DNA of 64,000 bases from Escherichia coli. GTDB lineage: Bacteria; Pseudomonadota; Gammaproteobacteria; Enterobacterales; Enterobacteriaceae. A program made the position numbers and the translations under genes. The notes beneath the pieces were generated by a model. It was not told where the DNA came from. It did no database searches and saw only the letters and a program-made list of their open reading frames with translations. This document shows, piece after piece, positions 1-24,379 of the stretch (position 1 is its first letter; every line of letters begins with the position of its first letter). Location of the stretch: NCBI RefSeq assembly GCF_003334315.1, contig NZ_QOWR01000024.1. One strand, written 5' to 3'.

Positions 1-258
1 TTATCGTGAGAGTAATTCATCGGCACGTTAAATCATATCAGGCGTAATACCACAACCCTTAAGTTAGCGCTTATGGGGTAAAACCCCGCGTACTGAATTG
101 TGATGGTTTGGTCTCCTGCACCCTTTTTTAATTTATATTGTTTATGTGAATATTATGCCTATGTTTATTATTCATATATATTACGGATGAAAATTATTTG
201 ATTATTCATAATGTAAATATTTTATTGAATGATATATATCACAGATAATTTTTAATAT
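1..258. promoter_or_regulatory. AT-rich region upstream of cas3, probable cas3 promoter and nucleoid-protein (H-NS-type) silencing target
   Basis: Bases 120-258 are very AT-rich (runs of tttatt/atatat) directly before the cas3 ATG at 259; AT-rich tracts are typical H-NS targets and cas promoters are known to be H-NS silenced in E. coli. Confidence 0.4.
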
Positions 259-2958
259 ATGCGTAAATATCCTTTAAGTTTACTGAAGGATAAAAATATT
301 GTGACTTTTTTTGATTTCTGGGGAAAAACCCGACGCGGCGAGAAAGACGGGGGCGACGACTATCACCTTCTTTGCTGGCATTCGCTGGATGTAGCCGCGA
401 TGGGCTATTTAATGGTTAAAAGAAATTGCTTCGGGCTGGCTGATTATTTTCGTCAATTAGGGATTTCTGACAAGGAACAGGCGGCTCAATTTTTCGCCTG
501 GTTGCTGTGCTGGCACGATATTGGAAAATTTGCCCGCTCTTTTCAACAACTTTACCTGCCCCCTGAACTCAAGATTCAGGAAGGTGCCAGAAAAAATTAC
601 GAAAAAATCTCTCATTCAACGCTGGGCTACTGGTTGTGGAATCATTATTTAAGTGAATGTCAGGAGTTACTTCCTTCATCTTCGCTCTCTCCGCGCAAAC
701 TTAGGCGAGTGATAGAAATGTGGATGCCCGTGACGACAGGGCATCATGGTCGGCCCCCTGATCGTATGGATGAATTGGATAATTTTCTGCCTGAAGACAA
801 AGCTGCAGCACGAGATTTTCTCCTTGAAATCAAACCACTGTTTCCGCTCATAGAGATCCCCGCATTCTGGGATGATGATGAGGGCATTGAACTTATAAAA
901 CACCTTTCCTGGTATATCTCTGCAACCGTCGTGCTCGCAGACTGGACGGGTTCGTCAACGCGATTTTTTCCACGCGTCGCACACCCAATGGATATTAAAG
1001 GTTACTGGCAGAAAACTTTAATTCAGGCTCAAAACGCCTTAACCGTCTTTCCTCTAAAAGCAAAAGTCGCGCCTTTCAACGGAATTAATACGCTGTTTCC
1101 TTTTATTGAGAATCCGACACCGTTACAGCAAAAGGTGCTGGATCTGGATATCAGCCAGCAAGGACCGCAGTTATTTATTCTGGAAGATGTGACTGGCGCA
1201 GGTAAAACAGAAGCGGCGCTTATCCTGGCGCACAGGTTGATAGCTGCGGGGAAAGCTCAGGGGCTGTTTTTTGGTCTGCCAACAATGGCAACGGCCAATG
1301 CCATGTACGATCGGCTGGTCAAAACCTGGCTTGCTTTCTATTCGCCAGAATCCCGCCCCAGCCTGGTGCTGGCACATAGTGCCCGCACATTAATGGACCG
1401 CTTTAATGAATCACTCTGGTCTGGTGATTTAGTCGGGTCAGAAGAACCGGATGAACAAACGTTCAGTCAGGGATGTGCGGCCTGGTTTGCCGACAGTAAC
1501 AAGAAGGCGTTGCTGGCTGAAATTGGCGTCGGCACGCTGGATCAGGCGATGATGGCGGTGATGCCGTTCAAACATAATAATCTGCGGCTTCTGGGGCTGA
1601 GTAACAAAATCCTGCTGGCTGATGAGATCCACGCCTGTGACGCTTACATGTCGTGCATTCTTGAAGGGTTGATCGAGCGGCAGGCGCGTGGCGGAAACAG
1701 CGTTATTTTGCTTTCTGCCACGTTATCTCAACAGCAGCGCGACAAACTCGTCGCTGCCTTTGCGCGGGGTACAGAGGGCCAGCAAGAAGCTCCGTTCCTG
1801 GAAAAGGATGATTACCCCTGGCTGACGCATGTCACGAAATCCGATGTGAACTCACACCGGGTAGCGACGCGCAAAGACGTTGAGCGTAGCGTCAGCGTGG
1901 GTTGGCTTCATAGTGAACAAGAGTGTATTGCGCGTATCGAATCGGCGGTAAGTCAGGGGAAATGCATCGCCTGGATCCGGAATTCTGTCGATGACGCTAT
2001 TAAGGTTCATCGTCAGCTGCTTGCCCGCGGCGTCATTCCTGCTTCCAGCCTTTCACTTTTTCATAGCCGCTTTGCTTTTAGCGATCGCCAGCGAATTGAA
2101 ACGGAAACGCTGGCACGCTTTGGTAAATATTGTAGTTTACAGAGAGCGTCGCAAGTCATTGTTTGTACACAAGTAATTGAGCAAAGCGTGGATATTGACC
2201 TGGACGAAATGATCTCCGACCTGGCCCCTGTTGATTTGCTGATTCAGCGAGCAGGACGATTACAGCGGCATATCCGCGATATTAATGGTCAGTTAAAGCG
2301 TGACGGAAAGGACGAGCGTTCCCCCCCTGAATTGCTGATTCTGGCTCCCGTCTGGGACGACTCTCCTGGCGACGAATGGTTTGGCAGTGCCATGCGTAAC
2401 AGTGCATTTGTCTATCCCGATCATGGGCGAATCTGGCTGACGCAGCGTGTGCTGCGTGAGCAAGGTGCTATTCAGATGCCACACGCAGCCCGGCTTCTTA
2501 TTGAATCCGTCTACGGTGAGGACGTGGTAATGCCGGAAGGATTTGCCCGCAGCGAGCAGGAGCAAGTGGGCAAATATTACTGTGATCGCGCAATGGCTAA
2601 AAAGTTTGTGCTGAACTTCAGGCCCGGCTATGCCGCCAATATCAACGATTACCTCCCGGAAAAACTGTCGACACGTCTGGCTGAGGAGTCTGTTTCCCTG
2701 TGGCTGGCTACCTGTATTGACGGTGTGGTGAAGCCTTATGCCACCGGTGCTCACGCATGGGAAATGAGCGTTGTCAGAGTGCGCCGAAGCTGGTGGAAAA
2801 AACATCGGGATGAGTTTTCTTTACTGGAGGGAGAGGCGTTCAGGCTGTGGTGCATTGAACAGCGACAAGATCCGGAGATGGCAAACGTGATTTTAGTCAA
2901 CGATGACGAAAGTTGCGGGTATTCGGCTACGGAAGGATTGATTGGCAAGGTTGGTTGA
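259..2958 (+). CDS. cas3: Cas3 HD-nuclease/SF2 helicase, type I-E (899 aa)
   Basis: N-terminal HD motifs (HLLCWHSLDVAAMG, CWHDIGKF), helicase Walker A (TGAGKTEAA) and DEIH box (LLADEIHACD); lies directly upstream of the Cascade genes. Confidence 0.93.
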   Translation: MRKYPLSLLKDKNIVTFFDFWGKTRRGEKDGGDDYHLLCWHSLDVAAMGYLMVKRNCFGLADYFRQLGISDKEQAAQFFAWLLCWHDIGKFARSFQQLYLPPELKIQEGARKNYEKISHSTLGYWLWNHYLSECQELLPSSSLSPRKLRRVIEMWMPVTTGHHGRPPDRMDELDNFLPEDKAAARDFLLEIKPLFPLIEIPAFWDDDEGIELIKHLSWYISATVVLADWTGSSTRFFPRVAHPMDIKGYWQKTLIQAQNALTVFPLKAKVAPFNGINTLFPFIENPTPLQQKVLDLDISQQGPQLFILEDVTGAGKTEAALILAHRLIAAGKAQGLFFGLPTMATANAMYDRLVKTWLAFYSPESRPSLVLAHSARTLMDRFNESLWSGDLVGSEEPDEQTFSQGCAAWFADSNKKALLAEIGVGTLDQAMMAVMPFKHNNLRLLGLSNKILLADEIHACDAYMSCILEGLIERQARGGNSVILLSATLSQQQRDKLVAAFARGTEGQQEAPFLEKDDYPWLTHVTKSDVNSHRVATRKDVERSVSVGWLHSEQECIARIESAVSQGKCIAWIRNSVDDAIKVHRQLLARGVIPASSLSLFHSRFAFSDRQRIETETLARFGKYCSLQRASQVIVCTQVIEQSVDIDLDEMISDLAPVDLLIQRAGRLQRHIRDINGQLKRDGKDERSPPELLILAPVWDDSPGDEWFGSAMRNSAFVYPDHGRIWLTQRVLREQGAIQMPHAARLLIESVYGEDVVMPEGFARSEQEQVGKYYCDRAMAKKFVLNFRPGYAANINDYLPEKLSTRLAEESVSLWLATCIDGVVKPYATGAHAWEMSVVRVRRSWWKKHRDEFSLLEGEAFRLWCIEQRQDPEMANVILVNDDESCGYSATEGLIGKVG

Positions 2959-3055
2959 GATGTCTGCGACAGGACTCTCTGAATAGTTGATACACCGAAA
3001 AGGATGGAAAGATGGACAACCGACCTGGGATGGTCTTTTTTACGAGAGGATGCGT

Positions 3056-4618
3056 ATGAACTCGTTTTCACTTCTGACAACCCCGTGGTTGCCCGTTCGT
3101 TTTAAAGACGGAACGACAGGCAAACTGGCGCCAGTCGATCTGGCGGATGAAAATGTTGTCGATATTTCTGCGCCGCGGGCAGATCTCCAGGGTGCGGTAT
3201 GGCAGTTTTTGCTGGGGCTACTACAAACCAGCTTCGCGCCAAAAGATCATCGTCGTTGGGATGATATCTGGGAAGACGGACTGGAAGCTGAAAAGCTACG
3301 GGAAGCATTGCAGTCATTAGAACATGCTTTCCAGTTTGGGCCAGATTCCCCTTCATTTATGCAGGATTTCGAGGCGCTCACCGGAGATAAAGTTCCGGTC
3401 GCTTCGCTACTGCCTGAGATTCCCGGCGCTCAAACAACGAAGTTTAATAAAGACCACTTTATCAAGCGTGGTGTAACGGAATACCTGTGCCCACATTGTT
3501 CTGCGTTAGCTCTGTTCTCCCTACAGTTGAATGCGCCGTCAGGTGGCAAAGGCTACCGCACCGGTTTACGCGGCGGTGGGCCGATGACCACTCTGATTGA
3601 ATTACAGGAATATCAGGGTAATCAACAAACTCCCTTGTGGCGCAAACTGTGGATCAATGTCATGCCGCAGGATGAAGCCGATTTACCGCTACCCAAAAAA
3701 TTTGACGATCTGGTTTTCCCCTGGCTTGGCCCGACGCGCACCAGCGAACTGGCCGGTGCGGTGGTAACCGATGAGCAGGTCAATAAACTCCAGGCGTACT
3801 GGGGAATGCCTCGCCGTATTCGTATTGATTTTAATACCACGACAGTCGGCAACTGCGATATTTGCGGTGAGCAGAGCGACGCGCTCCTGAGCCTGATGAC
3901 GACCAAAAATTACGGTGCGAATTATGCCATGTGGCAGCATCCCTTAACGCCTTACCGTGTACCACTTAAAGAGGGTGGCGAGTTTTACTCCGTTAAACCA
4001 CAACCGGGCGGTTTAATCTGGCGTGACTGGTTAGGCCTTATCGAAACGGGTAAATCAGAAAACAATACGGAACTTCCCGCGCTGGTGGTGAAACTCTTCA
4101 ATGCCAGCAGTCTCAAGCAGGCAAAAGTGGGCCTGTGGGGATTTGGCTATGATTTCGACAACATGAAAGCGCGCTGTTGGTACGAACACCATTTCCCGCT
4201 GCTGCTCGATAAAAAAGAAGGTCAGATACCGAAGCTGCGGCTGGCTGCGCAAACAGCTTCACGGATTCTAAGTCTGTTACGGAGTGCATTGAAAGAAGCA
4301 TGGTTCTCCGATCCAAAAGGTGCAAGGGGTGATTTTAGTTTTGTGGATATCGACTTCTGGAACAAAACTCAGCATCGCTTTCTGAGGTTAGTGCGCCAAA
4401 TTGAAGAAGGTCAGGATGCGGATGAATTACTCAGCAAATGGAATAAGGAAATTTGGTTATTCGCACGTCAGGATTTTGACGAGCGTGTATTCACCAATCC
4501 TTATGAGCCCGTTGATCTGGAACGCGTCATGACCGCGCGCAAGAAATATTTTACAACATCGGCGGAGAAGCAAAGTGCTAAAGCCGCCAGGGAGAAAAAG
4601 CAGGAGGCTGCTGAATGA
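3056..4618 (+). CDS. cse1: Cse1 (CasA) Cascade large subunit, about 520 aa
   Basis: First gene after cas3 in a I-E operon; start placed at MNSFSLLTTPWLPVRF by analogy with the CasA N-terminus (MNLLIDNWIPVRP) and a GAGG RBS at 3046-3049. The ORF track begins earlier at 2987, and an ATG at 3050 is an alternative. Confidence 0.8.
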   Translation: MNSFSLLTTPWLPVRFKDGTTGKLAPVDLADENVVDISAPRADLQGAVWQFLLGLLQTSFAPKDHRRWDDIWEDGLEAEKLREALQSLEHAFQFGPDSPSFMQDFEALTGDKVPVASLLPEIPGAQTTKFNKDHFIKRGVTEYLCPHCSALALFSLQLNAPSGGKGYRTGLRGGGPMTTLIELQEYQGNQQTPLWRKLWINVMPQDEADLPLPKKFDDLVFPWLGPTRTSELAGAVVTDEQVNKLQAYWGMPRRIRIDFNTTTVGNCDICGEQSDALLSLMTTKNYGANYAMWQHPLTPYRVPLKEGGEFYSVKPQPGGLIWRDWLGLIETGKSENNTELPALVVKLFNASSLKQAKVGLWGFGYDFDNMKARCWYEHHFPLLLDKKEGQIPKLRLAAQTASRILSLLRSALKEAWFSDPKGARGDFSFVDIDFWNKTQHRFLRLVRQIEEGQDADELLSKWNKEIWLFARQDFDERVFTNPYEPVDLERVMTARKKYFTTSAEKQSAKAAREKKQEAAE

Positions 4619-5151
4619 GTATTGTAAAAGAGGAGCACAAAGCCACGCTGCGCAAATGGCACGAGGAATTGCAGGAGAAACGTGGCGAACGTGCCAGTCT
4701 GCGGCGTAGTACGACGGTTAATGATGTTTGTCTGACGGATGGATTTCGCCTGTTTCTGAAGAACAGACAAATAAAGTGGCAGGATGAACCTGAGTGGCGT
4801 ATCACCGCACTGGCGCTGATAGCCGCAGTTAGCGCCAATGTTAAAGCTATTGATGAACGGCAGCCTTTTGCCGCGCAGCTGGCGGCGGTAATGTCAAAGG
4901 GGCGTTTTACTCGTCTGTCGGCAGTAAAAACACCGGATGAATTACTGCGCCAGTTACGCCGCGCAGTCAGATTATTAAACGGTTCCGTCAATCTTGACTC
5001 TCTGGCAGAGGGGGTCTTCCGTTGGTGCCAGGAGAGCGACGACCTGCTCAATCATCACCGCCGCCAGCAGCGGCCAACCGAATTTATCCGTATCCGCTGG
5101 GCGCTGGAATATTACCAGGCTGGCGACGCCGATAACGAACAAAATCAATAA
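4615..5151 (+). CDS. cse2: Cse2 (CasB) Cascade small subunit (178 aa)
   Basis: Small ORF in the Cse2 position; start overlaps the cse1 stop (ATGA-type coupling). Confidence 0.85.
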   Translation: MSIVKEEHKATLRKWHEELQEKRGERASLRRSTTVNDVCLTDGFRLFLKNRQIKWQDEPEWRITALALIAAVSANVKAIDERQPFAAQLAAVMSKGRFTRLSAVKTPDELLRQLRRAVRLLNGSVNLDSLAEGVFRWCQESDDLLNHHRRQQRPTEFIRIRWALEYYQAGDADNEQNQ

Positions 5152-5162
5152 AGGACTATCTC

Positions 5163-6218
5163 ATGACAACATTTATTCAGCTTCATTTGTTAACCGCTTA
5201 CCCTGCTGCCAACCTTAACCGTGATGATACCGGTGCGCCAAAAACTGTGGTGCTGGGTGGAGCAACGCGTCTGCGCGTTTCCTCGCAAAGTCTGAAATGT
5301 GCGTGGCGCACTTCTGCACTTTTTGAACAGGCACTGGCGGGCCATATTGGTATTCGCAGTGGGCGTATTGCGCGTGAGGCGGCAACTATCCTGATTGAGA
5401 AAGGAATCGAAGAGAAAAAAGCCATCGAATGGGCGGCAAAAATTGCAGATTATCTTGGGAAAGCTAAAAACGACAAAAAACCAAAAGATCCGCTCACTAA
5501 CGCCGAAACTGAACAGTTAGTCCATATCAGCCCGGCAGAATTTGACGCCGTAAAAGTGCTGGCCCATCAGCTTGCAGAAGAAAAGCGCGCGCCAAAAGAG
5601 GAAGATCTCGCGTTGTTACGCAAAGACCGTATGGCGGTAGATATTGCCATGTTTGGTCGTATGCTGGCGAATAAACCCGAGTTTAATGTTGAAGCCGCCT
5701 GCCAGGTAGCGCACGCATTTGGTGTCAGTGAAATGATTGTCGAAGATGATTTTTTCACCGCCGTTGATGATTTGCGCCAGGCTTCTGAAGATGCCGGTGC
5801 CGGGCATCTTGGTGAAACCGGATTCGGTTCTGCACTGTTCTACACCTATATCTGCATTGATAAAGATCTGCTGGTCGAAAACCTTGGCGGTGACGAAGCG
5901 TTAGCTAATCAGACCATACGTGCCTTTACGGAAGCCGCACTTAAAGTCTCCCCAACCGGCAAACAGAACAGCTTTGCCAGCCGTGCCTACGCCTCCTGGG
6001 CGCTGGCAGAAAAAGGCACCGATCAACCGCGTTCTCTGGCGGCAGCTTTCTATGAACCCATTAATGGCACCCGTCAGTTAGAGGTGGCGGTGCAGCGTAT
6101 TACAACTCTTCGCGAAAATATGAATACGGTCTACGAACAGAAGACCGATTACGCAAGTTTTGACGTGATGAACAAACAGGGAAGCATGAAGGACGTGCTG
6201 GACTTTATCTGCGCGTAA
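5163..6218 (+). CDS. cas7: Cas7e (CasC) Cascade backbone subunit (351 aa)
   Basis: N-terminus MTTFIQLHLLTAYPAANLNRDDTGAPK matches the Cas7e/CasC N-terminal signature (HLL..YP..NLNRDDTG) and the gene is in the expected position. Confidence 0.9.
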   Translation: MTTFIQLHLLTAYPAANLNRDDTGAPKTVVLGGATRLRVSSQSLKCAWRTSALFEQALAGHIGIRSGRIAREAATILIEKGIEEKKAIEWAAKIADYLGKAKNDKKPKDPLTNAETEQLVHISPAEFDAVKVLAHQLAEEKRAPKEEDLALLRKDRMAVDIAMFGRMLANKPEFNVEAACQVAHAFGVSEMIVEDDFFTAVDDLRQASEDAGAGHLGETGFGSALFYTYICIDKDLLVENLGGDEALANQTIRAFTEAALKVSPTGKQNSFASRAYASWALAEKGTDQPRSLAAAFYEPINGTRQLEVAVQRITTLRENMNTVYEQKTDYASFDVMNKQGSMKDVLDFICA

Positions 6219-6228
6219 GGGGCGGCTT

Positions 6229-6975
6229 ATGAGCCAATATCTGATTTTTCAGCTTCATGGGCCGATGGCGTCCTGGGGTGTCGATGCTCCAGGTGAAGTT
6301 CGTCATACCCATGAACTTCCTTCGCGCTCAGCATTGCTGGGGCTACTGGCTGCCGGGGTAGGGATTCGGCGTGATGATACCGAACGCTTAAACGCGTTTA
6401 ATCGCCACTATTCACTGGTGGTTTGCGCCAGCCGTAACCCGCGCTGGGCACGGGATTATCACACGGTCCAGATGCCAAAAGAGGTGCGTAAAGCACGTTA
6501 TTTCAGCCGTCGCGAAGAGTTGAGCGACCCTGAGCTTTTGAGCGCGATTATCTCCCGGCGCGACTACTACACCGATGCCTGGTGGATGGTGGCGGTGGCA
6601 ACAACCCCCGATGCGCCTTACAGCCTCGAACAGTTGCAGGACGGTTTACGCCATCCGGTTTTTCCGCTTTATCTGGGGCGAAAAAGTCATCCGCTGGCGT
6701 TACCACTTGCGCCGTTACTGCTCGAAGGCAACGCGTCTGATGTCTTACGTAACGCATACCAACAGTATCAGGATCGTTTCCGCGAACTGAAAGTCTCACT
6801 CCCGAAACTTCAGGATGAATGCTGGTGGGAAGGGGAGCACGATGGTTTGGTCGCAAGCAAAATATTACGCCGCCGGGATGTTCCTTTAAATCGTCAGCAG
6901 TGGCTGTTTGGGGAACGCACCATCAATCAGGGGCCGTGGCTCAGCAAGGAGGAACCATGTACCTCTCAAGAATAA
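6229..6975 (+). CDS. cas5: Cas5e (CasD) Cascade subunit (248 aa)
   Basis: N-terminus MSQYLIFQLHGPMASWG resembles the Cas5e signature (MRSYLILRLAGPMQAWG); 3' end overlaps the cas6e start by 19 nt. Confidence 0.9.
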   Translation: MSQYLIFQLHGPMASWGVDAPGEVRHTHELPSRSALLGLLAAGVGIRRDDTERLNAFNRHYSLVVCASRNPRWARDYHTVQMPKEVRKARYFSRREELSDPELLSAIISRRDYYTDAWWMVAVATTPDAPYSLEQLQDGLRHPVFPLYLGRKSHPLALPLAPLLLEGNASDVLRNAYQQYQDRFRELKVSLPKLQDECWWEGEHDGLVASKILRRRDVPLNRQQWLFGERTINQGPWLSKEEPCTSQE

Positions 6976-7603
6976 CCTTACATACCGGCCAGCTTTCGCC
7001 TGCGCAGTTGCTGCATCTGGTGGATCGCGGTGAATATGTGATGCATCAGTGGTTGTGGGATCTCTTCCCTGGCGGCAAAGAAAGGCAATTTCTTTATCGT
7101 CGGGAAGAACTCCAGGGCGCGTTTCGCTTTTTTGTCCTCTCGCAGGAACGCCCGGCAGAAAGTGAAACTTTCACCATCGAATGCCGGTCATTTACGCCCG
7201 AGCTGAGTACCGGACAACAACTTTGTTTCAACCTGCGGGCGAATCCAACAATCTGTAAAGCGGGCAAGCGCCACGATCTGCTGATGGAGGCGAAACGGCA
7301 GGTGAGGGGACAGGCGGAAGGAAGTGATGTCTGGTTGCATCAACAACAGGCGGCGCTGGACTGGCTGGCAGCGCAGGGGGAAAGAAGTGGTTTTACACTA
7401 CTGGATACCTCGGTTGATGCCTACCGACAACAACAACTCCGGCGGGAAAACTCCTGGCAACTGATCCAGTTCAGTAGTGTGGATTATACGGGGATGCTTA
7501 CGGTCACCGATCCTGGGTTATTTCTGCAACGTCTCAGTCAGGGGTATGGCAAAAGCCGGGCGTTCGGTTGTGGTCTGATGCTGATCAAACCTGGAGCAGA
7601 GGC

Positions 7604-7607
<4 letters not shown>
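6957..7607 (+). CDS. cas6e: Cas6e (CasE) pre-crRNA endoribonuclease (216 aa)
   Basis: Start placed at the internal ATG at 6957 (MYLSRITLHTG), matching the CasE N-terminus MYLS; C-terminal GCGLM motif. The ORF track start at 6819 is an artificial 5' extension. Confidence 0.88.
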
Positions 7608-8817
<1,210 letters not shown>

Positions 8818-8912
8818 GTTATCCGTTCTTTAAAAATAAGGAAATGTTTTAATTTAGTTGGTAGATTGTTGATGCGGAATAAATTTGTTTAAAACAGTTA
8901 TGTATGCTTAGT
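8818..8912 (+). promoter_or_regulatory. CRISPR leader (AT-rich), contains the array promoter and probable IHF-bending region
   Basis: About 95 bp of AT-rich sequence between the cas2 stop and the first repeat, the standard I-E leader position. Confidence 0.75.
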
Positions 8913-9429
8913 GTGTTCCCCGCGCCAGCGGGGATAAACCGGAGCGTAGAGATTCTCGAAACCGATCCGGACGGTGTTCCCCGCGCCAGCGGGGATAAAC
9001 CGAATAAATAATAATCCAGTAGCCCCATGTATTAGTGTTCCCCGCGCCAGCGGGTATAAACCGGTAATAAAAAATATTCTATTTCTGCTGAATCAGTGTT
9101 CCCCGCGCCAGCGGGGATAAACCGCTTGCGAGCAAAAGATCCAGGCCGAGAAAGACGTGTTCCCCGCGCCAGCGGGGATAAACCGCGATAACCGCGTCAG
9201 TATTGGACAGGATATCAGTGTTCCCCGCGCCAGCGGGGATAAACCGAATCTATTGTGAATTTGAAATGGTCCAGCACTGTGTTCCCCGCGCCAGCGGGGA
9301 TAAACCGGGTAAAAACACGGTCTGAACCGACATTCATGTGTGTTCCCCGCGTCAGCGGGGATAAACCGGGCGCACTGGATGCGATGATGGATATCACTTG
9401 GAGTTCCCCGCCCCTGCGGTAGAACTCCC
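8913..9429 (+). CRISPR. Type I-E CRISPR array: 9 repeats of 29 bp (last one degenerate) and 8 spacers of 32 bp
   Basis: Repeat GTGTTCCCCGCGCCAGCGGGGATAAACCG at 8913, 8974, 9035, 9096, 9157, 9218, 9279, 9340 with a strict 61-bp period; repeat 3 has GGGTATAAACC, repeat 8 has GCGTCAGC; terminal degenerate repeat GAGTTCCCCGCCCCTGCGGTAGAACTCCC at 9401-9429. Spacers at 8942-8973, 9003-9034, 9064-9095, 9125-9156, 9186-9217, 9247-9278, 9308-9339, 9369-9400. Confidence 0.97.
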
Positions 9430-9449
9430 AACTCCCATTTTCATACCCA

Positions 9450-10487
9450 TCAAGACGCCTTCGCCAGCTCCTTCACCAGCGGTAGCATTATCCGCATAAC
9501 ATCACGGCAGCGACGTTCTATTCTTCCTGGAAGTGCCTTATCAATATGTTGTTGATTATCCAGTCTTACGTCATGCCAGCTATTTCCCGCAGGGAATGCA
9601 GCTGTTTTTGCGCGTTGCTGATAACCATCCTTATTCCCAAGATTCCAATTTGTTGCTTCTACCGAAAGTACGGCAATACCGGCTTTGTCGAAAACTTCGG
9701 CGTCATTACAACAGCCAGTACCCTTCGGATAATTTTTATTCAAACCCGGATTGGTCGTTGCGGCAATTCCATGACTACGCGCAATTGCCAGTGCCCTGTC
9801 GCGCGTTAATTTCCTTACTGCTTCAGGGGTTTTTACACCACTGTTGAAATACAATTTATCGCCAACAATTAAGTTATCGAGATTAATCACCAGCAGCGTA
9901 TTTTTCTTTTCGGTGTCACTCATCCGCTTGAGTAAATTCTCAGCGCCTAATTTCCCTTCCTCTTCACCGCTGGTCGCTACAAATCGAATACCATACTCGG
10001 TAGGCGTATTTTTCAGGCGTTCTGCCAATTCCAGCATGACACCTAAACCTGCGGCGTTATCATCCATTCCTTGTAACGTCAGCCCGCCGAGATTGGCATC
10101 GGCGTCAGCATCGCTCAGCGGGGCGTAAGTATCCAGATGCGCCATAATGATGATCTGCTGCGGCGCTTTGCCTTCATGAGCGGCAATCACCGTACTTCCC
10201 GTCACGTTATGCCAGCTCTTACGATTATCGCGGGCGGTATAAATATACCGACTATTAAATGTCCGAATATCACTGCGATAACCCATTTGCTGAAACTGTT
10301 GGCGAATATAATCGGCAGATAACATTTCTGCAGGAGTTCCGGTCATGCGTCCCGGAAAGAAAGTAGCAATATGTCGTGCCTGAGTATTAGCAAAATCGCC
10401 AGGTTTAGGTGACGAGGCGTGTACGGGGAGAATAAAGCATACGCCGAGCGCCAGGGCAGCGGTACGGTGGCGCAATGCGGAAAACAT
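9450..10487 (-). CDS. iap: Alkaline phosphatase isozyme conversion aminopeptidase Iap (345 aa)
   Basis: Signal peptide followed by an M28-type aminopeptidase sequence; the conserved neighbour of this CRISPR array in E. coli. Confidence 0.9.
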   Translation of the reverse strand: MFSALRHRTAALALGVCFILPVHASSPKPGDFANTQARHIATFFPGRMTGTPAEMLSADYIRQQFQQMGYRSDIRTFNSRYIYTARDNRKSWHNVTGSTVIAAHEGKAPQQIIIMAHLDTYAPLSDADADANLGGLTLQGMDDNAAGLGVMLELAERLKNTPTEYGIRFVATSGEEEGKLGAENLLKRMSDTEKKNTLLVINLDNLIVGDKLYFNSGVKTPEAVRKLTRDRALAIARSHGIAATTNPGLNKNYPKGTGCCNDAEVFDKAGIAVLSVEATNWNLGNKDGYQQRAKTAAFPAGNSWHDVRLDNQQHIDKALPGRIERRCRDVMRIMLPLVKELAKAS

Positions 10488-18175: not shown

Positions 18176-18313
18176 AACGTGAGGAAATACCTGGATTTTT
18201 CCTGGTTATTTTGCCGCAGGTCAGCGTATCGTGAACATCTTTTCCAGTGTTCAGTAGGGTGCCTTGCACGGTAATTATGTCACTGGTTATTAACCAATTT
18301 TCCTGGGGGATAA

Positions 18314-19453
18314 ATGAGCGCGGGAAGCCCAAAATTCACCGTTCGCCGCATTGCGGCTTTGTCACTGGTTTCGCTATGGCTGGCAGGCTGTTCTGACACT
18401 TCAAATCCACCGGCACCGGTCAGCTCCGTTAATGGCAATGCGCCTGCAAATACCAATTCTGGTATGTTGATTACGCCGCCGCCGAAAATGGGGACGACGT
18501 CTACAGCCCAGCAACCGCAAATTCAGCCGGTACAGCAGCCACAAATTCAGGCTACTCAACAACCGCAAATCCAGCCAGTGCAGCCAGTAGCTCAGCAGCC
18601 GGTACAGATGGAAAACGGACGCATCGTCTATAACCGTCAGTATGGGAACATTCCGAAAGGCAGTTATAGCGGCAGTACCTATACCGTGAAAAAAGGCGAC
18701 ACACTTTTCTATATCGCCTGGATTACTGGTAACGATTTCCGTGACCTTGCTCAGCGCAACAATATTCAGGCACCATACGCGCTGAACGTTGGTCAGACCT
18801 TGCAGGTGGGTAATGCTTCCGGTACGCCAATCACTGGCGGAAATGCCATTACCCAGGCCGACGCAGCAGAGCAAGGAGTTGTGATCAAGCCTGCACAAAA
18901 TTCCACCGTTGCTGTTGCGTCGCAACCGACAATTACGTATTCTGAATCTTCGGGTGAACAGAGTGCTAACAAAATGTTGCCGAACAACAAGCCAGCTGCG
19001 ACCACGGTCACAGCGCCTGTAACGGTACCAACAGCAAGCACAACCGAGCCAACTGTCAGCAGTACATCAACCAGTACGCCTATCTCCACCTGGCGCTGGC
19101 CGACTGAGGGCAAAGTGATCGAAACCTTTGGCGCTTCTGAGGGGGGCAACAAGGGGATTGATATCGCAGGCAGCAAAGGACAGGCAATTATCGCGACCGC
19201 AGATGGCCGCGTTGTTTATGCTGGTAACGCGCTGCGCGGCTACGGTAATCTGATTATCATCAAACATAATGATGATTACCTGAGTGCCTACGCCCATAAC
19301 GACACAATGCTGGTCCGGGAACAACAAGAAGTGAAGGCGGGGCAAAAAATAGCAACCATGGGTAGCACCGGAACCAGTTCAACACGCTTGCATTTTGAAA
19401 TTCGTTACAAGGGGAAATCCGTAAACCCGCTGCGTTATTTGCCGCAGCGATAA
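18314..19453 (+). CDS. nlpD: Lipoprotein NlpD, LysM/M23-peptidase-family divisome amidase activator (379 aa)
   Basis: Lipobox (LAGCS), Q/P-rich repeats, LysM segment and C-terminal M23-like domain; contains the rpoS promoter region in E. coli. Confidence 0.93.
18509..18575 (+). repeat. In-frame tandem repeat inside nlpD encoding (QQPQIQ) x3
   Basis: Three near-identical units of about 21-24 bp (cagcaaccgcaaattcagccggta / cagcagccacaaattcaggct / caacaaccgcaaatccagcca). Confidence 0.7.
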
Positions 19454-19515: not shown

Positions 19516-20154
19516 ATGAGTCAGAATACGCTGAAAGTTCATGATTTAAATGAAGATGCGGAATTTGATGAGAACGGAGTTGAGGTTTTTGACGAAAAGG
19601 CCTTAGTAGAAGAGGAACCCAGTGATAACGATTTGGCCGAAGAGGAACTGTTATCGCAGGGAGCCACACAGCGTGTGTTGGACGCGACTCAGCTTTACCT
19701 TGGTGAGATTGGTTATTCACCACTGTTAACGGCCGAAGAAGAAGTTTATTTTGCGCGTCGCGCACTGCGTGGAGATGTCGCCTCTCGCCGCCGGATGATC
19801 GAGAGTAACTTGCGTCTGGTGGTAAAAATTGCCCGCCGTTATGGCAATCGTGGTCTGGCGTTGCTGGACATCCTGGCCGATGAAAAAGAGAACGGTCCGG
19901 AAGATACCACGCAAGATGACGATATGAAGCAGAGCATCGTCAAATGGCTGTTCGAGCTGAACGCCAAACAGCGTGAAGTGCTGGCACGTCGATTCGGTTT
20001 GCTGGGGTACGAAGCGGCAACACTGGAAGATGTAGGTCGTGAAATTGGCCTCACCCGTGAACGTGTTCGCCAGATTCAGGTTGAAGGCCTGCGCCGTTTG
20101 CGCGAAATCCTGCAAACGCAGGGGCTGAATATCGAAGCGCTGTTCCGCGAGTAA
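19516..20154 (+). CDS. rpoS: RpoS (sigma-S/sigma-38) allele with an in-frame internal deletion: 212 aa instead of about 330
   Basis: N-terminal ([14 protein letters not shown]...[12 protein letters not shown]) and C-terminal ([13 protein letters not shown]...[10 protein letters not shown]) parts match RpoS, but the central part (regions 2.2-3) is absent; junction at the direct-repeat sequence GCGTTGCTGGAC (19858-19869). Confidence 0.85.
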
Positions 20155-23120: not shown

Positions 23121-24379
23121 GATAAAAACTCTCTTTGGGCTCGTGAAAAAAAGGCGTCATCACCGAAGTTGCCAGATTTAAGGGCGAGTGAGACAGGCTT
23201 ATCCAGTGCGTTTACCCACGGCACGCCGGGGGAAATGGTTGGGCCAATATGAAACCCTTTTATGCCCAGGCTCTGTGTGACTACGCCGGAGGTCTCACCG
23301 CCTGCGACAATAAAGCGTGCCACGCCTTCCGCCGCTAACCGCGCCGCTAGTTGAGAAAACAGTGTTTCTACTGCCTGACTGGCTTTTTGTGCACCGTATT
23401 GCTGTTGAATTGCTGCCAATGCGTCAGTGCTGGCGGTGGCAAAAACCAGTGGAGCAAGTACACTTTCCTGGCCCAGAACCCACTCTGCCAGTTCGTGTGC
23501 ATAAGTGGCCAGAGTTTCAGTTGAGAGGCAGCGTGCCACATCAACTTCACGGGCTGGTGCAATTTGACGGTAATGTGCTACCTGGCGGTTGGTCATTTGA
23601 GAGCATGAACCGGAGAGCACTACGCCGCGCCCAGCGAGCGGATGCCCTGCTTCGCGAGCCTGGTTACCGTTTTCTTGCGTCCACTGCCGGGCCAGGCCAA
23701 TCGCCAGACCAGAACCGCCCGTTACCAGTGGGGCATCGCGCAAGGCTTCTCCCTGAATTTCCAGATGGTGTTCGGTCAGCGCATCAAGCACCGCGTAGCG
23801 GTAGCCCTCTTGCTGTAAGCGAGCCAGCTCTTGACGAACGGCATCCACACCTTGTTCGAAAACATGTGCCGAAACGACGCCGCAGCGCCCTGTGGATTGC
23901 GCTTCAACCAGACGGGGAAGATAGCTGTCGGTCATGGGATTTACCGGGTGATGGCGCATCCCGGATTCGGCCAGCAGTTGATTCATTACGAACAAATACC
24001 CCTGATAAACCGTACGTCCGTTGACCGGCAGGGCCGGAGAGAAGACCGTAAACGGCGTGTCGAGAGCATCCATTAATGCATCGGTAACCGGGCCGATATT
24101 ACCTTTAGCCGTACTGTCGAAAGTAGAGCAGTATTTGAAATAGATCTGTTTGCAACCTTGCTGTTGCAACCAGCTCAGAGCCGCCAGCGATTGCTGTGTG
24201 GCTTCAACCACCGGACAGGAACGCGTTTTCAGGCTGATCACCAGTGCGTCGATTGCTTCCGGCATTTTACCTGTTGGAACACCGTTAATTTGTACCGTTG
24301 GTAGACCGTTTTCCACCAGAAAACTGGCGATATCCGTTGCGCCGGTAAAATCATCGGCGATAACGCCAATCTTGATCAT
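23117..24379 (-). CDS. ygbK: DUF1537-family four-carbon acid-sugar kinase YgbK (3-oxo-tetronate kinase, OtnK) (420 aa)
   Basis: N-terminal IADDFTGA motif typical of DUF1537 kinases; 4-nt overlaps with both neighbours. Confidence 0.85.
   Translation of the reverse strand: MIKIGVIADDFTGATDIASFLVENGLPTVQINGVPTGKMPEAIDALVISLKTRSCPVVEATQQSLAALSWLQQQGCKQIYFKYCSTFDSTAKGNIGPVTDALMDALDTPFTVFSPALPVNGRTVYQGYLFVMNQLLAESGMRHHPVNPMTDSYLPRLVEAQSTGRCGVVSAHVFEQGVDAVRQELARLQQEGYRYAVLDALTEHHLEIQGEALRDAPLVTGGSGLAIGLARQWTQENGNQAREAGHPLAGRGVVLSGSCSQMTNRQVAHYRQIAPAREVDVARCLSTETLATYAHELAEWVLGQESVLAPLVFATASTDALAAIQQQYGAQKASQAVETLFSQLAARLAAEGVARFIVAGGETSGVVTQSLGIKGFHIGPTISPGVPWVNALDKPVSLALKSGNFGDDAFFSRAQREFLS

Follow-up and report, generated by a model that had tools for sequence, protein, structure and literature searches.

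The window analyzed in this study, i.e. the whole stretch of 64,000 nucleotides, contains an array of short repeats at positions 8913–9429 on the plus strand. Reading of the sequence, a repeat finder and explicit parsing all resolved this array into nine repeats of 29 nt and eight spacers of 32 nt, with the repeats starting at 8913 + 61 × i (i = 0 to 8) and all eight spacers differing from one another. The eight spacers, the strict 61-bp periodicity and all coordinates of an original prediction, which had been made from the sequence alone, thus proved to be exact. The consensus repeat, GTGTTCCCCGCGCCAGCGGGGATAAACCG, is present in six identical copies and is predicted to form a hairpin with a stem of 7 bp and a tetraloop. 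The nine repeats fit the partially palindromic type I-E repeat G(A/T)GTTCCCCGCGCCAGCGGGGATAAACCG, with a single mismatch in each of two copies and a degenerate last copy. Both single-mismatch repeats were found as described before. In repeat 3 (9035–9063, plus strand), the G at repeat position 21 (window position 9055) is replaced by T; this nucleotide belongs to the 3′ arm of the hairpin and is the final one of the stem ahead of the published cut site. In repeat 8 (9340–9368, plus strand), the loop nucleotide C at position 13 is replaced by T (C13T). The last unit (9401–9429, plus strand) is indeed degenerate, with 19 of 29 positions identical to the consensus, and its predicted fold is a different hairpin (GAGUUC...GAACUC, −12.6 kcal/mol). 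No further copies of the repeat were detected elsewhere in the 64-kb window.

All eight cas genes of a type I-E system are located directly upstream of the array (Table 1), in agreement with its earlier assignment to the Cas6e type. The genes contain no internal stops, their products matched NCBIfam I-E families above the curated cutoffs, and K-12-specific NCBIfam models scored below cutoff. The start of casA was adopted from the annotation of genome CP53. CasE of the window retains the motif around the catalytic histidine (YVMHQWLWDLFP, compared to YQLHQGLWHLFP in K-12), which was identified via the published H20 (PMC5965381). The gene order cas2e–CRISPR–iap is shared by the window and the matching RefSeq genomes, and the locus is 99.8% identical to many RefSeq genomes that annotate “CRISPR” at this place. 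It is a textbook E. coli CRISPR1 array, which is already known and annotated in public genomes. Only a private base change within one of the repeats, adjoining the RNA-processing cut site, is out of the ordinary.

Table 1 Features of the type I-E locus in the window, in order of position.
Feature	Position	Strand	Properties
cas3	259..2958	+	899 aa without internal stop; above cutoff for the NCBIfam Cas3 HD and helicase core domains; 29% identical to K-12 Cas3
casA/cse1	3056..4618	+	520 aa; TIGR02547, 610 bits; 21% identical to K-12 CasA
casB/cse2	4615..5151	+	178 aa; TIGR02548, 99 bits
casC/cas7e	5163..6218	+	351 aa; TIGR01869, 439 bits
casD/cas5e	6229..6975	+	248 aa; TIGR01868, 160 bits
casE/cas6e, pre-crRNA endoribonuclease	6957..7607	+	216 aa; TIGR01907, 289 bits; 27% identical to K-12 CasE
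cas1e	7604..8527	+	307 aa; TIGR03638, 381 bits; 85% identical to K-12 Cas1
cas2e	8524..8817	+	97 aa; TIGR01873, 132 bits; 86% identical to K-12 Cas2
Leader	8818..8912	+	95 nt; 73.7% A+T (window 53% G+C)
Spacer 1	8942..8973	+	32/32 with ATG PAM in IMG/VR contig L050, 12090–12121; myovirus tail-sheath gene
Spacer 2, orphan	9003..9034	+	28% GC; no match in phages, plasmids, IMG/VR, metagenome contigs
Spacer 3, orphan	9064..9095	+	22% GC; no match
Spacer 4, orphan	9125..9156	+	No match
Spacer 5	9186..9217	+	32/32 with ATG PAM in IMG/VR contig L042; DUF2590/phrog_1237 gene, tail-baseplate module, ESSI-2-like temperate myovirus
Spacer 6, orphan	9247..9278	+	Accompanies spacer 8 in other strains’ arrays
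Spacer 7	9308..9339	+	P7 upf94.2 (lxr region in P1), P1/P7-like phage-plasmids
Spacer 8, orphan, ancestral trailer-end spacer	9369..9400	+	No foreign match
iap, downstream edge of the locus	9450..10487	−	NF007568, 705 bits, and RefSeq annotation

The nearest genome, CP53, has the same cas2e–CRISPR–iap locus with the same repeat consensus, and direct reading of its array revealed all eight spacers of the window in identical arrangement. Just two changes within 901 nt set the window apart from CP53, namely the G21T substitution in repeat 3 and one fewer A in the leader. The T13 variant of repeat 8 is identical in CP53 and in EC590, whose array is a deletion variant with the spacer order S1-S2-S5-S6-S7-S8. 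The two loci are less similar upstream: cas3 of CP53 is a pseudogene, whereas the cas3 ORF of the window is intact and has a C at position 2428 where CP53 has a T, and CP53 carries an IS5 copy upstream of cas3, with the alignment to the window stopping at window position 64. The spacer set is shared by further complete genomes, for instance PCN061, HS30-1, ECZP248 and H2; in PCN061 and ECZP248, 100% of a query comprising spacers 1 to 5 was covered in one place.

CRISPR I of E. coli K-12 MG1655 occupies the same chromosomal position and has the same 61-nt period. Its repeat differs from that of the window only at position 2 (A in K-12, T in the window), and the terminal degenerate repeats of the two arrays are nearly identical. 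In contrast, the K-12 array contains 13 spacers, of which only the last (spacer 8) is common to the window, and the leader of the window is alignable to the K-12 leader, yet diverged. The Cas1 and Cas2 proteins of K-12 are 85–86% identical to those of the window, whereas Cas3 and CasA to CasE share only 21–35% identity. The K-12 repeat that precedes the shared last spacer has the same T13 as repeat 8 of the window in addition to G12A, and the K-12 array itself carries three point-variant repeats. The variant repeats highlighted in the original prediction are thus present, but such variants are normal for this locus. Type I-E arrays of Salmonella enterica, another species with other spacer content, also consist of GTGTTCCCCGCGCCAGCGGGGATAAACCG repeats and are accompanied by a similar cas variant.

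Searching the spacers in phage and plasmid databases, as had been proposed, yielded targets for three of the eight (spacers 1, 5, and 7), each with 32 of 32 positions matching phage or phage-plasmid DNA. For spacers 1 and 5, the 12 positions that were unspecified in the search pattern or outside of it all agreed as well (4^−12 = 6 × 10^−8). The ORF targeted by spacer 1 matches the tail sheath family phrog_23, and the phages nearest to this gene are vB_EcoM-569R10 and relatives, with 84% identity across the 61% of the gene that aligned. A role of the ATG beside this protospacer as start codon was rejected because the tail-sheath ORF is read in another frame. The isolated phages nearest to the target of spacer 5 are ESSI-2-like. 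This spacer also matched, at 28 of 32 positions, a prophage of E. coli N1420 that is annotated with a P2-family capsid, and three of the four mismatches are at third codon positions. Spacer 7 including the repeat-derived G matched 33 of 33 positions in P7, SJ46, and many plasmids.

The PAMs of the three protospacers agreed in part with the AAG/ATG type that had been anticipated, as those of spacers 1 and 5 are ATG but that of spacer 7 is CTG (in 33 of 33 IMG/VR contigs). An AWG-type 5′ PAM, the final G of which is carried into the array, is thus present for spacers 1 and 5, whereas the PAM of spacer 7 is non-consensus but keeps the G at −1. Slipped or flipped acquisition behind the CTG was rejected, with the nearest AAG at −7 to −5 and a downstream flank of TTT. 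In K-12, CTG is a Group C PAM that functioned with one of the spacers tested but not with another (PMC4678831). ATG has been linked by a published comment to Cas1–Cas2 variants distinct from those of K-12 (PMC6568314); both consensus-PAM protospacers found for the spacers of the window use ATG, and the cas variant of the window is a non-K-12 one. The spacers appear to have logged two contractile-tailed phages (spacers 1 and 5, ATG) and P1/P7 phage-plasmids (spacer 7, CTG). Concrete targets are now available for three of the eight spacers, all of them temperate elements, in agreement with the published view that CRISPR1 is mainly a record of prophages and P1-like phage-plasmids. The CRISPR1 arrays of E. 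coli have been described as unchanged over years and as directed mostly at prophages, the most frequent targets being P1, RCS47, and SJ46 (PMC10910852).

The remaining spacers 2, 3, 4, 6, and 8 are orphans that had no foreign match in INPHARED phages, PLSDB plasmids, or IMG/VR, based on scans that required an exact match at ≥20 positions, so that diverged protospacers would be missed, and on IMG/VR patterns with N at every sixth position. Likewise, no matches were obtained for spacers 2 and 4 in metagenome contigs or for spacers 4 and 6 in the GTDB species genomes, and among the matches listed for complete E. coli genomes none of the orphan spacers was located outside arrays. In PLSDB, spacer 8 was found only in chromosomes filed as plasmids and in one IncHI2 plasmid with a copy of the locus. 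Self-targeting and a lack of periodicity had been named beforehand as grounds against the array; the array is truly periodic, and none of the spacers matched elsewhere in the window at ≤9 mismatches.

Spacer 1 recurs inside CRISPR2 arrays of other lineages. In CREC-591 and ET565, CRISPR2 (on the queE/ygcF side) has the identical GTGTT repeat and the 61-nt period, and a spacer identical to spacer 1 is located at position 3 or 4. These arrays differ from that of the window in locus and leader, comprise 20–22 spacers, and have no further spacer in common with it. Spacer 1 most likely entered CRISPR1 and CRISPR2 through separate captures of one ATG-flanked protospacer, and recombination between arrays could also have led to this sharing. 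The occurrence of ATG at both consensus-PAM targets and of the same protospacer in two arrays of different lineages points to strongly preferred protospacers.

Spacer 8 was detected in approximately 4,243 of 5,426 complete E. coli genomes (~78%), including the K-12 derivative DH10B; among the matches listed, this count arose mostly via spacer 8. In 35–42 of the 5,426 genomes, which come from different hosts and countries, ≥80% of the spacer set is present at a single location. The arrays of relatives differ from that of the window by internal deletions. Since the oldest spacer is nearly species-wide, the full set is found in dozens of genomes, and relatives show internal deletions, the array represents an old and eroding record rather than a recently updated one. 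The original prediction had regarded the leader-proximal spacers as the most recently acquired. This holds true as a relative order, but not in the sense of a recent event, because the CP53 array is identical and spacer 1 is found in CRISPR2 of other lineages. Altogether, we are highly confident that the array is the chromosomal CRISPR1 (= CRISPR 2.1, iap side) of Escherichia coli with a complete type I-E cas operon of a non-K-12 sequence variant, and that its spacers form a vertically inherited record of temperate elements, which is old and erodes slowly. The spacer set can also be used as a lineage marker.

Whether the record excludes its targets was assessed for spacer 7. Among the 5,426 complete genomes, spacer 7 was present on two replicons (array and P1-like plasmid) in at most 26 genomes, compared to 21–23 expected under independence; this test, which is rough because matches with up to two mismatches were counted and a few chromosomal matches are not annotated as CRISPR, revealed no depletion. 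The counts fit a record that does not exclude its target. Carriage of spacer 7 with no sign of exclusion of the perfectly matching P1/P7 target agrees with either a silent system or a weak PAM.

The proposed orientation of transcription, from the cas2-proximal leader, is supported by the handle AUAAACCG, by the position of the degenerate end, and by the PAMs, which are located 5′ of the protospacers in plus orientation. By analogy to other members of the family, the A+T-rich leader beside cas2 would drive transcription of the array, and Cas6e would bind each repeat hairpin and cut after position 21. The resulting crRNA of 61 nt would consist of the 8-nt handle AUAAACCG, the 32-nt spacer, and the 21-nt hairpin. 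Cascade loaded with such crRNAs is expected to locate PAM-flanked protospacers, with subsequent degradation of the target by Cas3. A simple scan of positions 8700–9600 for sigma-70 and terminator consensus sequences returned no sites.

The leader contains a run of four A at 8891–8894 (plus strand), i.e. at −22 to −19 from repeat 1, whereas CP53 and EC590, in which this stretch was read, have five A. In K-12-type leaders, an IHF site within 35 bp of repeat 1 is needed for acquisition, and the shortened A-run falls within the 35 bp that were delimited as the IHF-binding region of this leader type (PMC5224486). The private 1-nt deletion would move the expected IHF-binding region 1 bp nearer to repeat 1. 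The IHF consensus WATCAANNNNTTR was matched in the leader at only seven of nine positions, as in K-12, which is too weak to place the site independently.

The substitution in repeat 3 is also private to the window sequence. The unit of spacer 2, repeat 3, and spacer 3 matched at 92 of 93 positions in all 51 complete genomes that hold it, consistent with a G as in CP53, and G21T was absent from all 51. Position 21 is a G in every E. coli repeat that was read, aside from the terminal degenerate ones. G21T is predicted to shorten the stem from 7 to 5 bp and to reduce its stability from −15.1 to −10.1 kcal/mol, i.e. by ~5 kcal/mol through the loss of the two bottom pairs. The hairpin of the crRNA has been described as a 7-bp stem with a tetraloop (PMC5965381), Cas6e cleaves directly after G21 (PMC3683919), and the bottom base pair rests on a beta-hairpin that positions the scissile phosphate (PMC3902920, PMC3727216). 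The exchange would remove the C6–G21 pair at the foot of the hairpin, beside the scissile bond. Cutting in repeat 3 is probably impaired, which would yield less mature crRNA-2 (at its 3′ end) and crRNA-3 (at its 5′ handle) and leave the other six guides unaffected. More tentatively, G21U might block cleavage in repeat 3, in which case spacers 2 and 3 would be released as one fused RNA of 122 nt (handle-S2-R3-S3-hairpin). This would constitute a natural two-guide knock-out within an otherwise intact operon, and could also provide a natural substrate for the question how strictly the bottom C–G pair is required by this non-K-12 Cas6e, which acts on almost the K-12 repeat despite its identity of only 27% to K-12 CasE. 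The mechanistic literature is based on Cas6e and Cascade of K-12 or Thermus, and because the interference proteins of the window are only 21–35% identical to those of K-12, both the PAM rules and the tolerance of G21U may differ here.

Several other readings of the locus have to be weighed against an eroding CRISPR1 record. It is extremely improbable that the periodic element belongs to another repeat class, such as a REP/BIME cluster, a minisatellite, or a coding repeat of the 112-aa ORF that was mechanically listed across the array on the minus strand (9093–9431), and this possibility was rejected. Besides that ORF, it could draw on Rfam 15, which returned no family at gathering score in the whole window or at E ≤ 1 in the array, evidently because the library contains no model scoring this repeat. 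Eight near-perfect copies of 29 nt at an exact period exclude chance, and the palindromic repeats separated by unique 32-nt spacers, the adjoining cas operon, the perfectly matched phage DNA with PAMs for three spacers, and the RefSeq annotation of the locus all argue for CRISPR. Tandem Repeats Finder covered only 8974–9124 of the array because unique spacers lower the score, which is a limit of the tool and no contradiction. Another alternative, which we consider quite improbable, is that the locus is a currently active defence, in which crRNAs are produced, spacers 1, 5, and 7 protect the strain at present against the matching myoviruses and P1-like phage-plasmids, and spacers are still being added. 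It would agree with the intact ORFs of all eight cas genes, including the cas3 that is a pseudogene in the nearest relative, with the perfect matches of spacers 1 and 5 at the consensus ATG PAM, and with the capture of the spacer 1 protospacer in two different arrays of different lineages, which suggests that adaptation worked repeatedly in nature. However, the identical array in CP53 and the wide distribution of the spacer set over hosts and countries speak against recent acquisition, and arrays with spacer 7 co-occur with target-bearing P1-like plasmids about as often as by chance. Moreover, the CTG PAM in K-12 worked with one spacer but not with another (PMC4678831), the leader has a private 1-nt deletion in its IHF region, and type I-E systems of E. 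coli are reportedly repressed by H-NS, with arrays that are stable over years (PMC5965381, PMC10910852).

For the G21T substitution, a reading that would compete with impaired processing is that the change is real but functionally neutral, with Cas6e tolerating U21 and a 5-bp stem and all eight crRNAs maturing normally. We regard this as possible, albeit doubtful. A hairpin with a 5-bp G–C core and the same loop is still predicted for the repeat alone and in its context, the K-12 array contains a stem mismatch (G18A) as well as loop variants, and Cas6e grips the hairpin mainly via the backbone of the 3′ strand (PMC3727216). This must be set against the reported position of the lost pair on the beta-hairpin that places the scissile phosphate (PMC3902920, PMC3727216), against the identity of the altered base as the nucleotide after which Cas6e cuts (PMC3683919), the 2′-OH of which is the attacking group as inferred from the general mechanism (PMC3727216), and against the G found at position 21 of all other non-terminal E. 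coli repeats that were read. Impaired cutting in repeat 3 remains the probable outcome, and the private G21T allele would be a ready natural variant for the study of Cas6e substrate requirements. For both G21T and the leader deletion, an origin from errors in sequencing or assembly, or from laboratory passage, is unlikely. In its favor, the 901-nt query has at least two differences from every complete genome, none of which carries the T, the deletion affects an A homopolymer and G21T the terminal position of a G run, which are contexts where errors typically arise, and a further 1-nt deletion is present at 18298. However, window and CP53 differ at approximately one position per 1.6–3.7 kb throughout, mostly by substitutions, so that two differences within 900 nt are no strong excess, and a G-to-T substitution is atypical of an error in homopolymer length.

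In the array, nine repeats of 29 nt, the first at 8913 and each further one 61 nt on, alternate with eight spacers of 32 nt (S1-S8, numbered from the leader on the cas2 side). Direct reading, a repeat finder and explicit parsing agreed on this structure, confirming the strict 61-bp periodicity and the spacer count of the original prediction. Six repeats are identical (GTGTTCCCCGCGCCAGCGGGGATAAACCG). As read originally, repeat 3 carries a T instead of G at position 21, repeat 8 has a T instead of C at position 13 within the loop, and the last repeat is degenerate. No further repeat copies were found in the 64-kb window, and a check for self-targeting within the window revealed no second match of any spacer with up to nine mismatches. 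A 112-aa ORF running antisense across the array was rejected as a gene and is an artefact of the repeats.

Of 5,426 complete E. coli genomes, all but one (5,425) were matched by a 901-nt query over the locus, and the best matches (99.8% identity) had cas2e, CRISPR and iap annotated beneath them. The nearest genome, CP53, contains the identical eight spacers in identical order. The eight uninterrupted ORFs upstream each score above the curated cutoff of NCBIfam type I-E families, iap lies downstream, and the leader (95 nt from cas2 to repeat 1) has an A+T content of 73.7% in a window of 53% G+C. Together, these features identify the array as the classical E. coli CRISPR1 (CRISPR 2.1). The G+C content over the cas genes is ordinary (47-55%), and within the cas region only the leader (26% G+C) and a 258-nt stretch preceding cas3 (29.5% G+C) are A+T-rich. 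In CP53, an IS5 copy is located upstream of cas3, and cas3 is a pseudogene with an internal stop. The cas3 ORF of the window is intact (899 aa), and the first 63 nt of the window are not alignable to CP53, where the IS5 copy sits (window 1-2958 versus CP53 sequence L001 1-3759).

Coordinates of the features described in the text (window positions unless another sequence is named).
Feature	Position	Strand	Remark
CRISPR1 array	8913-9429		between cas2e and iap
cas operon	259-8817		
cas3, casA/cse1, casB/cse2, casC/cas7e, casD/cas5e, casE/cas6e, cas1e, cas2e	upstream of array		NCBIfam type I-E
cas3 site	2428		C; T in CP53
Leader A-run	8891-8894		-22 to -19; one A fewer than in CP53 and EC590
Repeat 3, position 21	9055		T instead of G
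Terminal repeat	9401-9429		19/29 positions agree with consensus
112-aa ORF	9093-9431	-	TTG start; rejected
iap	downstream of array	-	
Single-base deletion	18298		pcm-nlpD intergenic; relative to CP53
Tandem repeat	18512-18576		24-nt period, 2.7 copies; inside nlpD by CP53 synteny
rpoS	19516-20154	+	212 aa instead of 330
rpoS deletion junction	19858-19869		
Tandem repeat	24264-24310		24-nt period, 2.0 copies; inside otnK by CP53 synteny
EC590 array	L052 1173-1506		S1-S2-S5-S6-S7-S8
Spacer identical to S1, CREC-591	L051 1502-1533		CRISPR2 position 3 or 4, unrelated neighbours
Spacer identical to S1, ET565	L053 1502-1533		CRISPR2 position 3 or 4, unrelated neighbours
pIOMTU792 CRISPR1 copy	L056 (NZ_LC542972.1) 244436-249468		cas6e-cas1e-cas2e-CRISPR-iap

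Four features agree with transcription from the cas2 side, in support of the orientation proposed originally: the leader, the degeneracy of the distal repeat, the presence of the AUAAACCG handle ahead of each plus-strand spacer, and the PAMs located 5' of the protospacers in plus orientation. A simple scan for sigma-70 sites returned no consensus promoter, which we regarded as uninformative.

The array of K-12 MG1655 occupies the same position, also ends in S8 and has a repeat that differs at base 2 only. The cas operon of the window is mosaic relative to K-12, as Cas1 and Cas2 are close (85-86% identity), whereas Cas3 and CasA-E share only 21-35% identity with their K-12 counterparts. This low identity indicates that the operon is a sequence variant distinct from that of K-12, and a second I-E variant has been described before in E. 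coli. Rules of mechanism established in K-12 apply here by analogy only. The catalytic-His motif of CasE (His20 taken from the literature) is conserved between both.

A mature crRNA is made up of a handle of 8 nt, a spacer of 32 nt and a hairpin of 21 nt, whose 7-bp stem carries a tetraloop (PMC5965381), and ViennaRNA predicted exactly this hairpin for the consensus repeat. The T13 of repeat 8 also occurs in CP53, in strain EC590 and, together with G12A, in the K-12 counterpart, and the change is therefore old. Two further variants in the K-12 array are a TT in the loop and G18A in the stem; point-variant repeats are thus normal at the CRISPR1 locus. The terminal repeat, which is near-identical in K-12, lacks the AUAAACCG handle and was predicted to form another, fairly stable hairpin (GAGUUC...GAACUC, -12.6 kcal/mol, z = -5).

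Among the single-base repeat variants seen, the change in repeat 3 (G21T; G21U in the RNA) is nearest to the cleavage site, as Cas6e cuts directly after G21 (PMC3683919). It turns the C6-G21 pair into C-U with a predicted loss of the two bottom pairs, in line with the weakened hairpin suspected originally. For the repeat alone, the predicted stem shrinks from 7 bp (-15.1 kcal/mol) to 5 bp (-10.1 kcal/mol), and in the S2-repeat 3-S3 context the energy changes from -21.4 to -15.9 kcal/mol. We lean towards the view that G21T would lower cutting within repeat 3; the consequences would then fall on crRNA-2 at its 3' end and on crRNA-3 at its 5' handle. A literature search found no experiment on G21U in E. 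coli. Over 901 nt, the window differs from CP53 only by G21T and one missing A in the leader, and the S2-repeat 3-S3 unit matched at 92 of 93 positions in all 51 complete genomes holding it, which is why G21T appears private to the window sequence. That this change next to the cleavage site is simply tolerated seems rather unlikely to us, and we consider it more doubtful still that the private base is a sequencing error.

No complete genome showed fewer than two differences to the 901-nt query, and the second difference from CP53 lies in the leader A-run. In the K-12-type leader, an IHF region within 35 bp of repeat 1 and an integrase-anchoring site at -50 to -53 are both required for acquisition (PMC5224486). 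One could speculate that a 1-bp change in spacing might matter; IHF-consensus matches in the leader are only weak, likewise in K-12. Alternatively, the missing A could be an error, as it lies in a homopolymer, where sequencing errors are common. Compared with CP53, the window has 12 differences in its first 19 kb and a further 12 in its last 44 kb, and hence the pair found within 165 nt of leader and array is only a mild excess. Counting the A-run, the first 19 kb contain two single-base deletions, the other being in the pcm-nlpD intergenic region.

The spacers were searched in phages and plasmids as 33-nt units (spacer plus repeat-derived G) joined by N runs. Targets, which the original prediction had left to a search, were found for S1, S5 and S7, whereas S2, S3, S4, S6 and S8 had no foreign match in any collection searched (phages, plasmids and IMG/VR, for some spacers also metagenome contigs and GTDB). 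S7 had matches identical at all 33 positions in phage P7 (gene upf94.2; lxr region in P1), in Salmonella phage SJ46 and in many P1-like plasmids, whereas P1 itself is 88% identical. S5 first matched, at 28/32 positions, a prophage of E. coli N1420 whose annotation includes a P2-family capsid. The match lies in a DUF2590 gene flanked by those for the tape measure and baseplate J, and codon third positions account for three of its four mismatches. A wobble-degenerate S5 pattern retrieved twelve IMG/VR homologues, one of which (L042) was perfect (32/32); the closest isolated phages are ESSI-2-like (ESSI2_ev239, Cronobacter phage ESSI-2). S1 matched the tail-sheath gene of IMG/VR contig L050 (32/32). 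Among phages, vB_EcoM-569R10 and related E. coli myoviruses come closest, with 84% identity across the 61% of the gene that aligned. For S1 and S5, all 12 positions unspecified in or outside the search pattern agree (chance 6e-8).

The AAG/ATG-type PAM expected originally was present as ATG for S1 and S5, whereas for S7 the PAM position was CTG in each of the 33 IMG/VR contigs that contain its exact protospacer. Slipped or flipped acquisition of S7 was ruled out, with the nearest AAG at -7 to -5 and a downstream flank of TTT. In K-12, CTG is a Group C PAM that was active with one tested spacer and nonfunctional with another (PMC4678831). The ATG consensus of natural E. coli protospacers was linked in a published comment to Cas1-Cas2 variants unlike those of K-12 (PMC6568314), and our two ATG PAMs are consistent with this link. 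The spacer targets also agree with a survey of 1,769 CRISPR1 arrays, in which E. coli spacers mostly targeted prophages, P1, RCS47 and SJ46 were the phages most often hit, ESSI2_ev239 was among the targeted coliphages, and ~40% of the spacers were orphans (PMC10910852).

The S7 unit matched 1,141 records in 1,115 genomes, at 1,028 chromosomal and 122 plasmid places. As a population proxy of protection, an S7-bearing chromosome and a target-bearing plasmid co-occurred in at most ~26 genomes, a rough bound derived from record counts rather than genome by genome and including matches with up to 2 mismatches. With 21-23 genomes expected under independence (hypergeometric P(X<=20) = 0.34, P(X<=26) = 0.84), S7 and its target plasmids showed no depletion of co-occurrence. 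This fits a silent system (H-NS repression), a weak CTG PAM, or both.

The spacer query matched ~4,243 of 5,426 genomes, mostly via S8 among the matches listed, and S6 and S8 are jointly present in other arrays; at least 80% of the spacer set occurred in one place in only 35-42 genomes. EC590 has an internal deletion of S3-S4, presumably caused by recombination between repeats. In a search with S1-S5, matches of at least 99% identity that spanned no more than two spacers occurred in 119 records. Each of the 29 S1-only matches listed was annotated as CRISPR, and both S1-only arrays inspected (CREC-591 and ET565) are CRISPR2 arrays on the queE side. The simplest reading is that other lineages independently captured the same ATG-anchored protospacer; alternatively, the unit could have been transferred by recombination between arrays. 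Since S1 and the spacer set recur across genomes, the original prediction that leader-proximal spacers are the newest holds as an order only, and no spacer in the array is recent. A copy of the chromosomal CRISPR1 locus, with an S8-like spacer (31/33) as its last one, is also present on pIOMTU792, a conjugative IncHI2A plasmid of 293 kb; this may reflect mobilisation of a chromosomal segment or an assembly error.

Overall, the original interpretation was correct and the finding is real, at a locus already known and annotated in a model species. What is new is that three spacers have targets, that S1 recurs in CRISPR2, that S7 showed no sign of excluding its target and that G21T appears private; these points are useful annotations rather than discoveries.

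Elsewhere in the window, rpoS has an in-frame deletion of 354 nt (118 codons) relative to CP53, bounded by two copies of a 12-nt direct repeat, GCGTTGCTGGAC. The deletion takes out about residues 119-236, which probably correspond to regions 2-3 of the sigma factor, and the allele is therefore presumably null.
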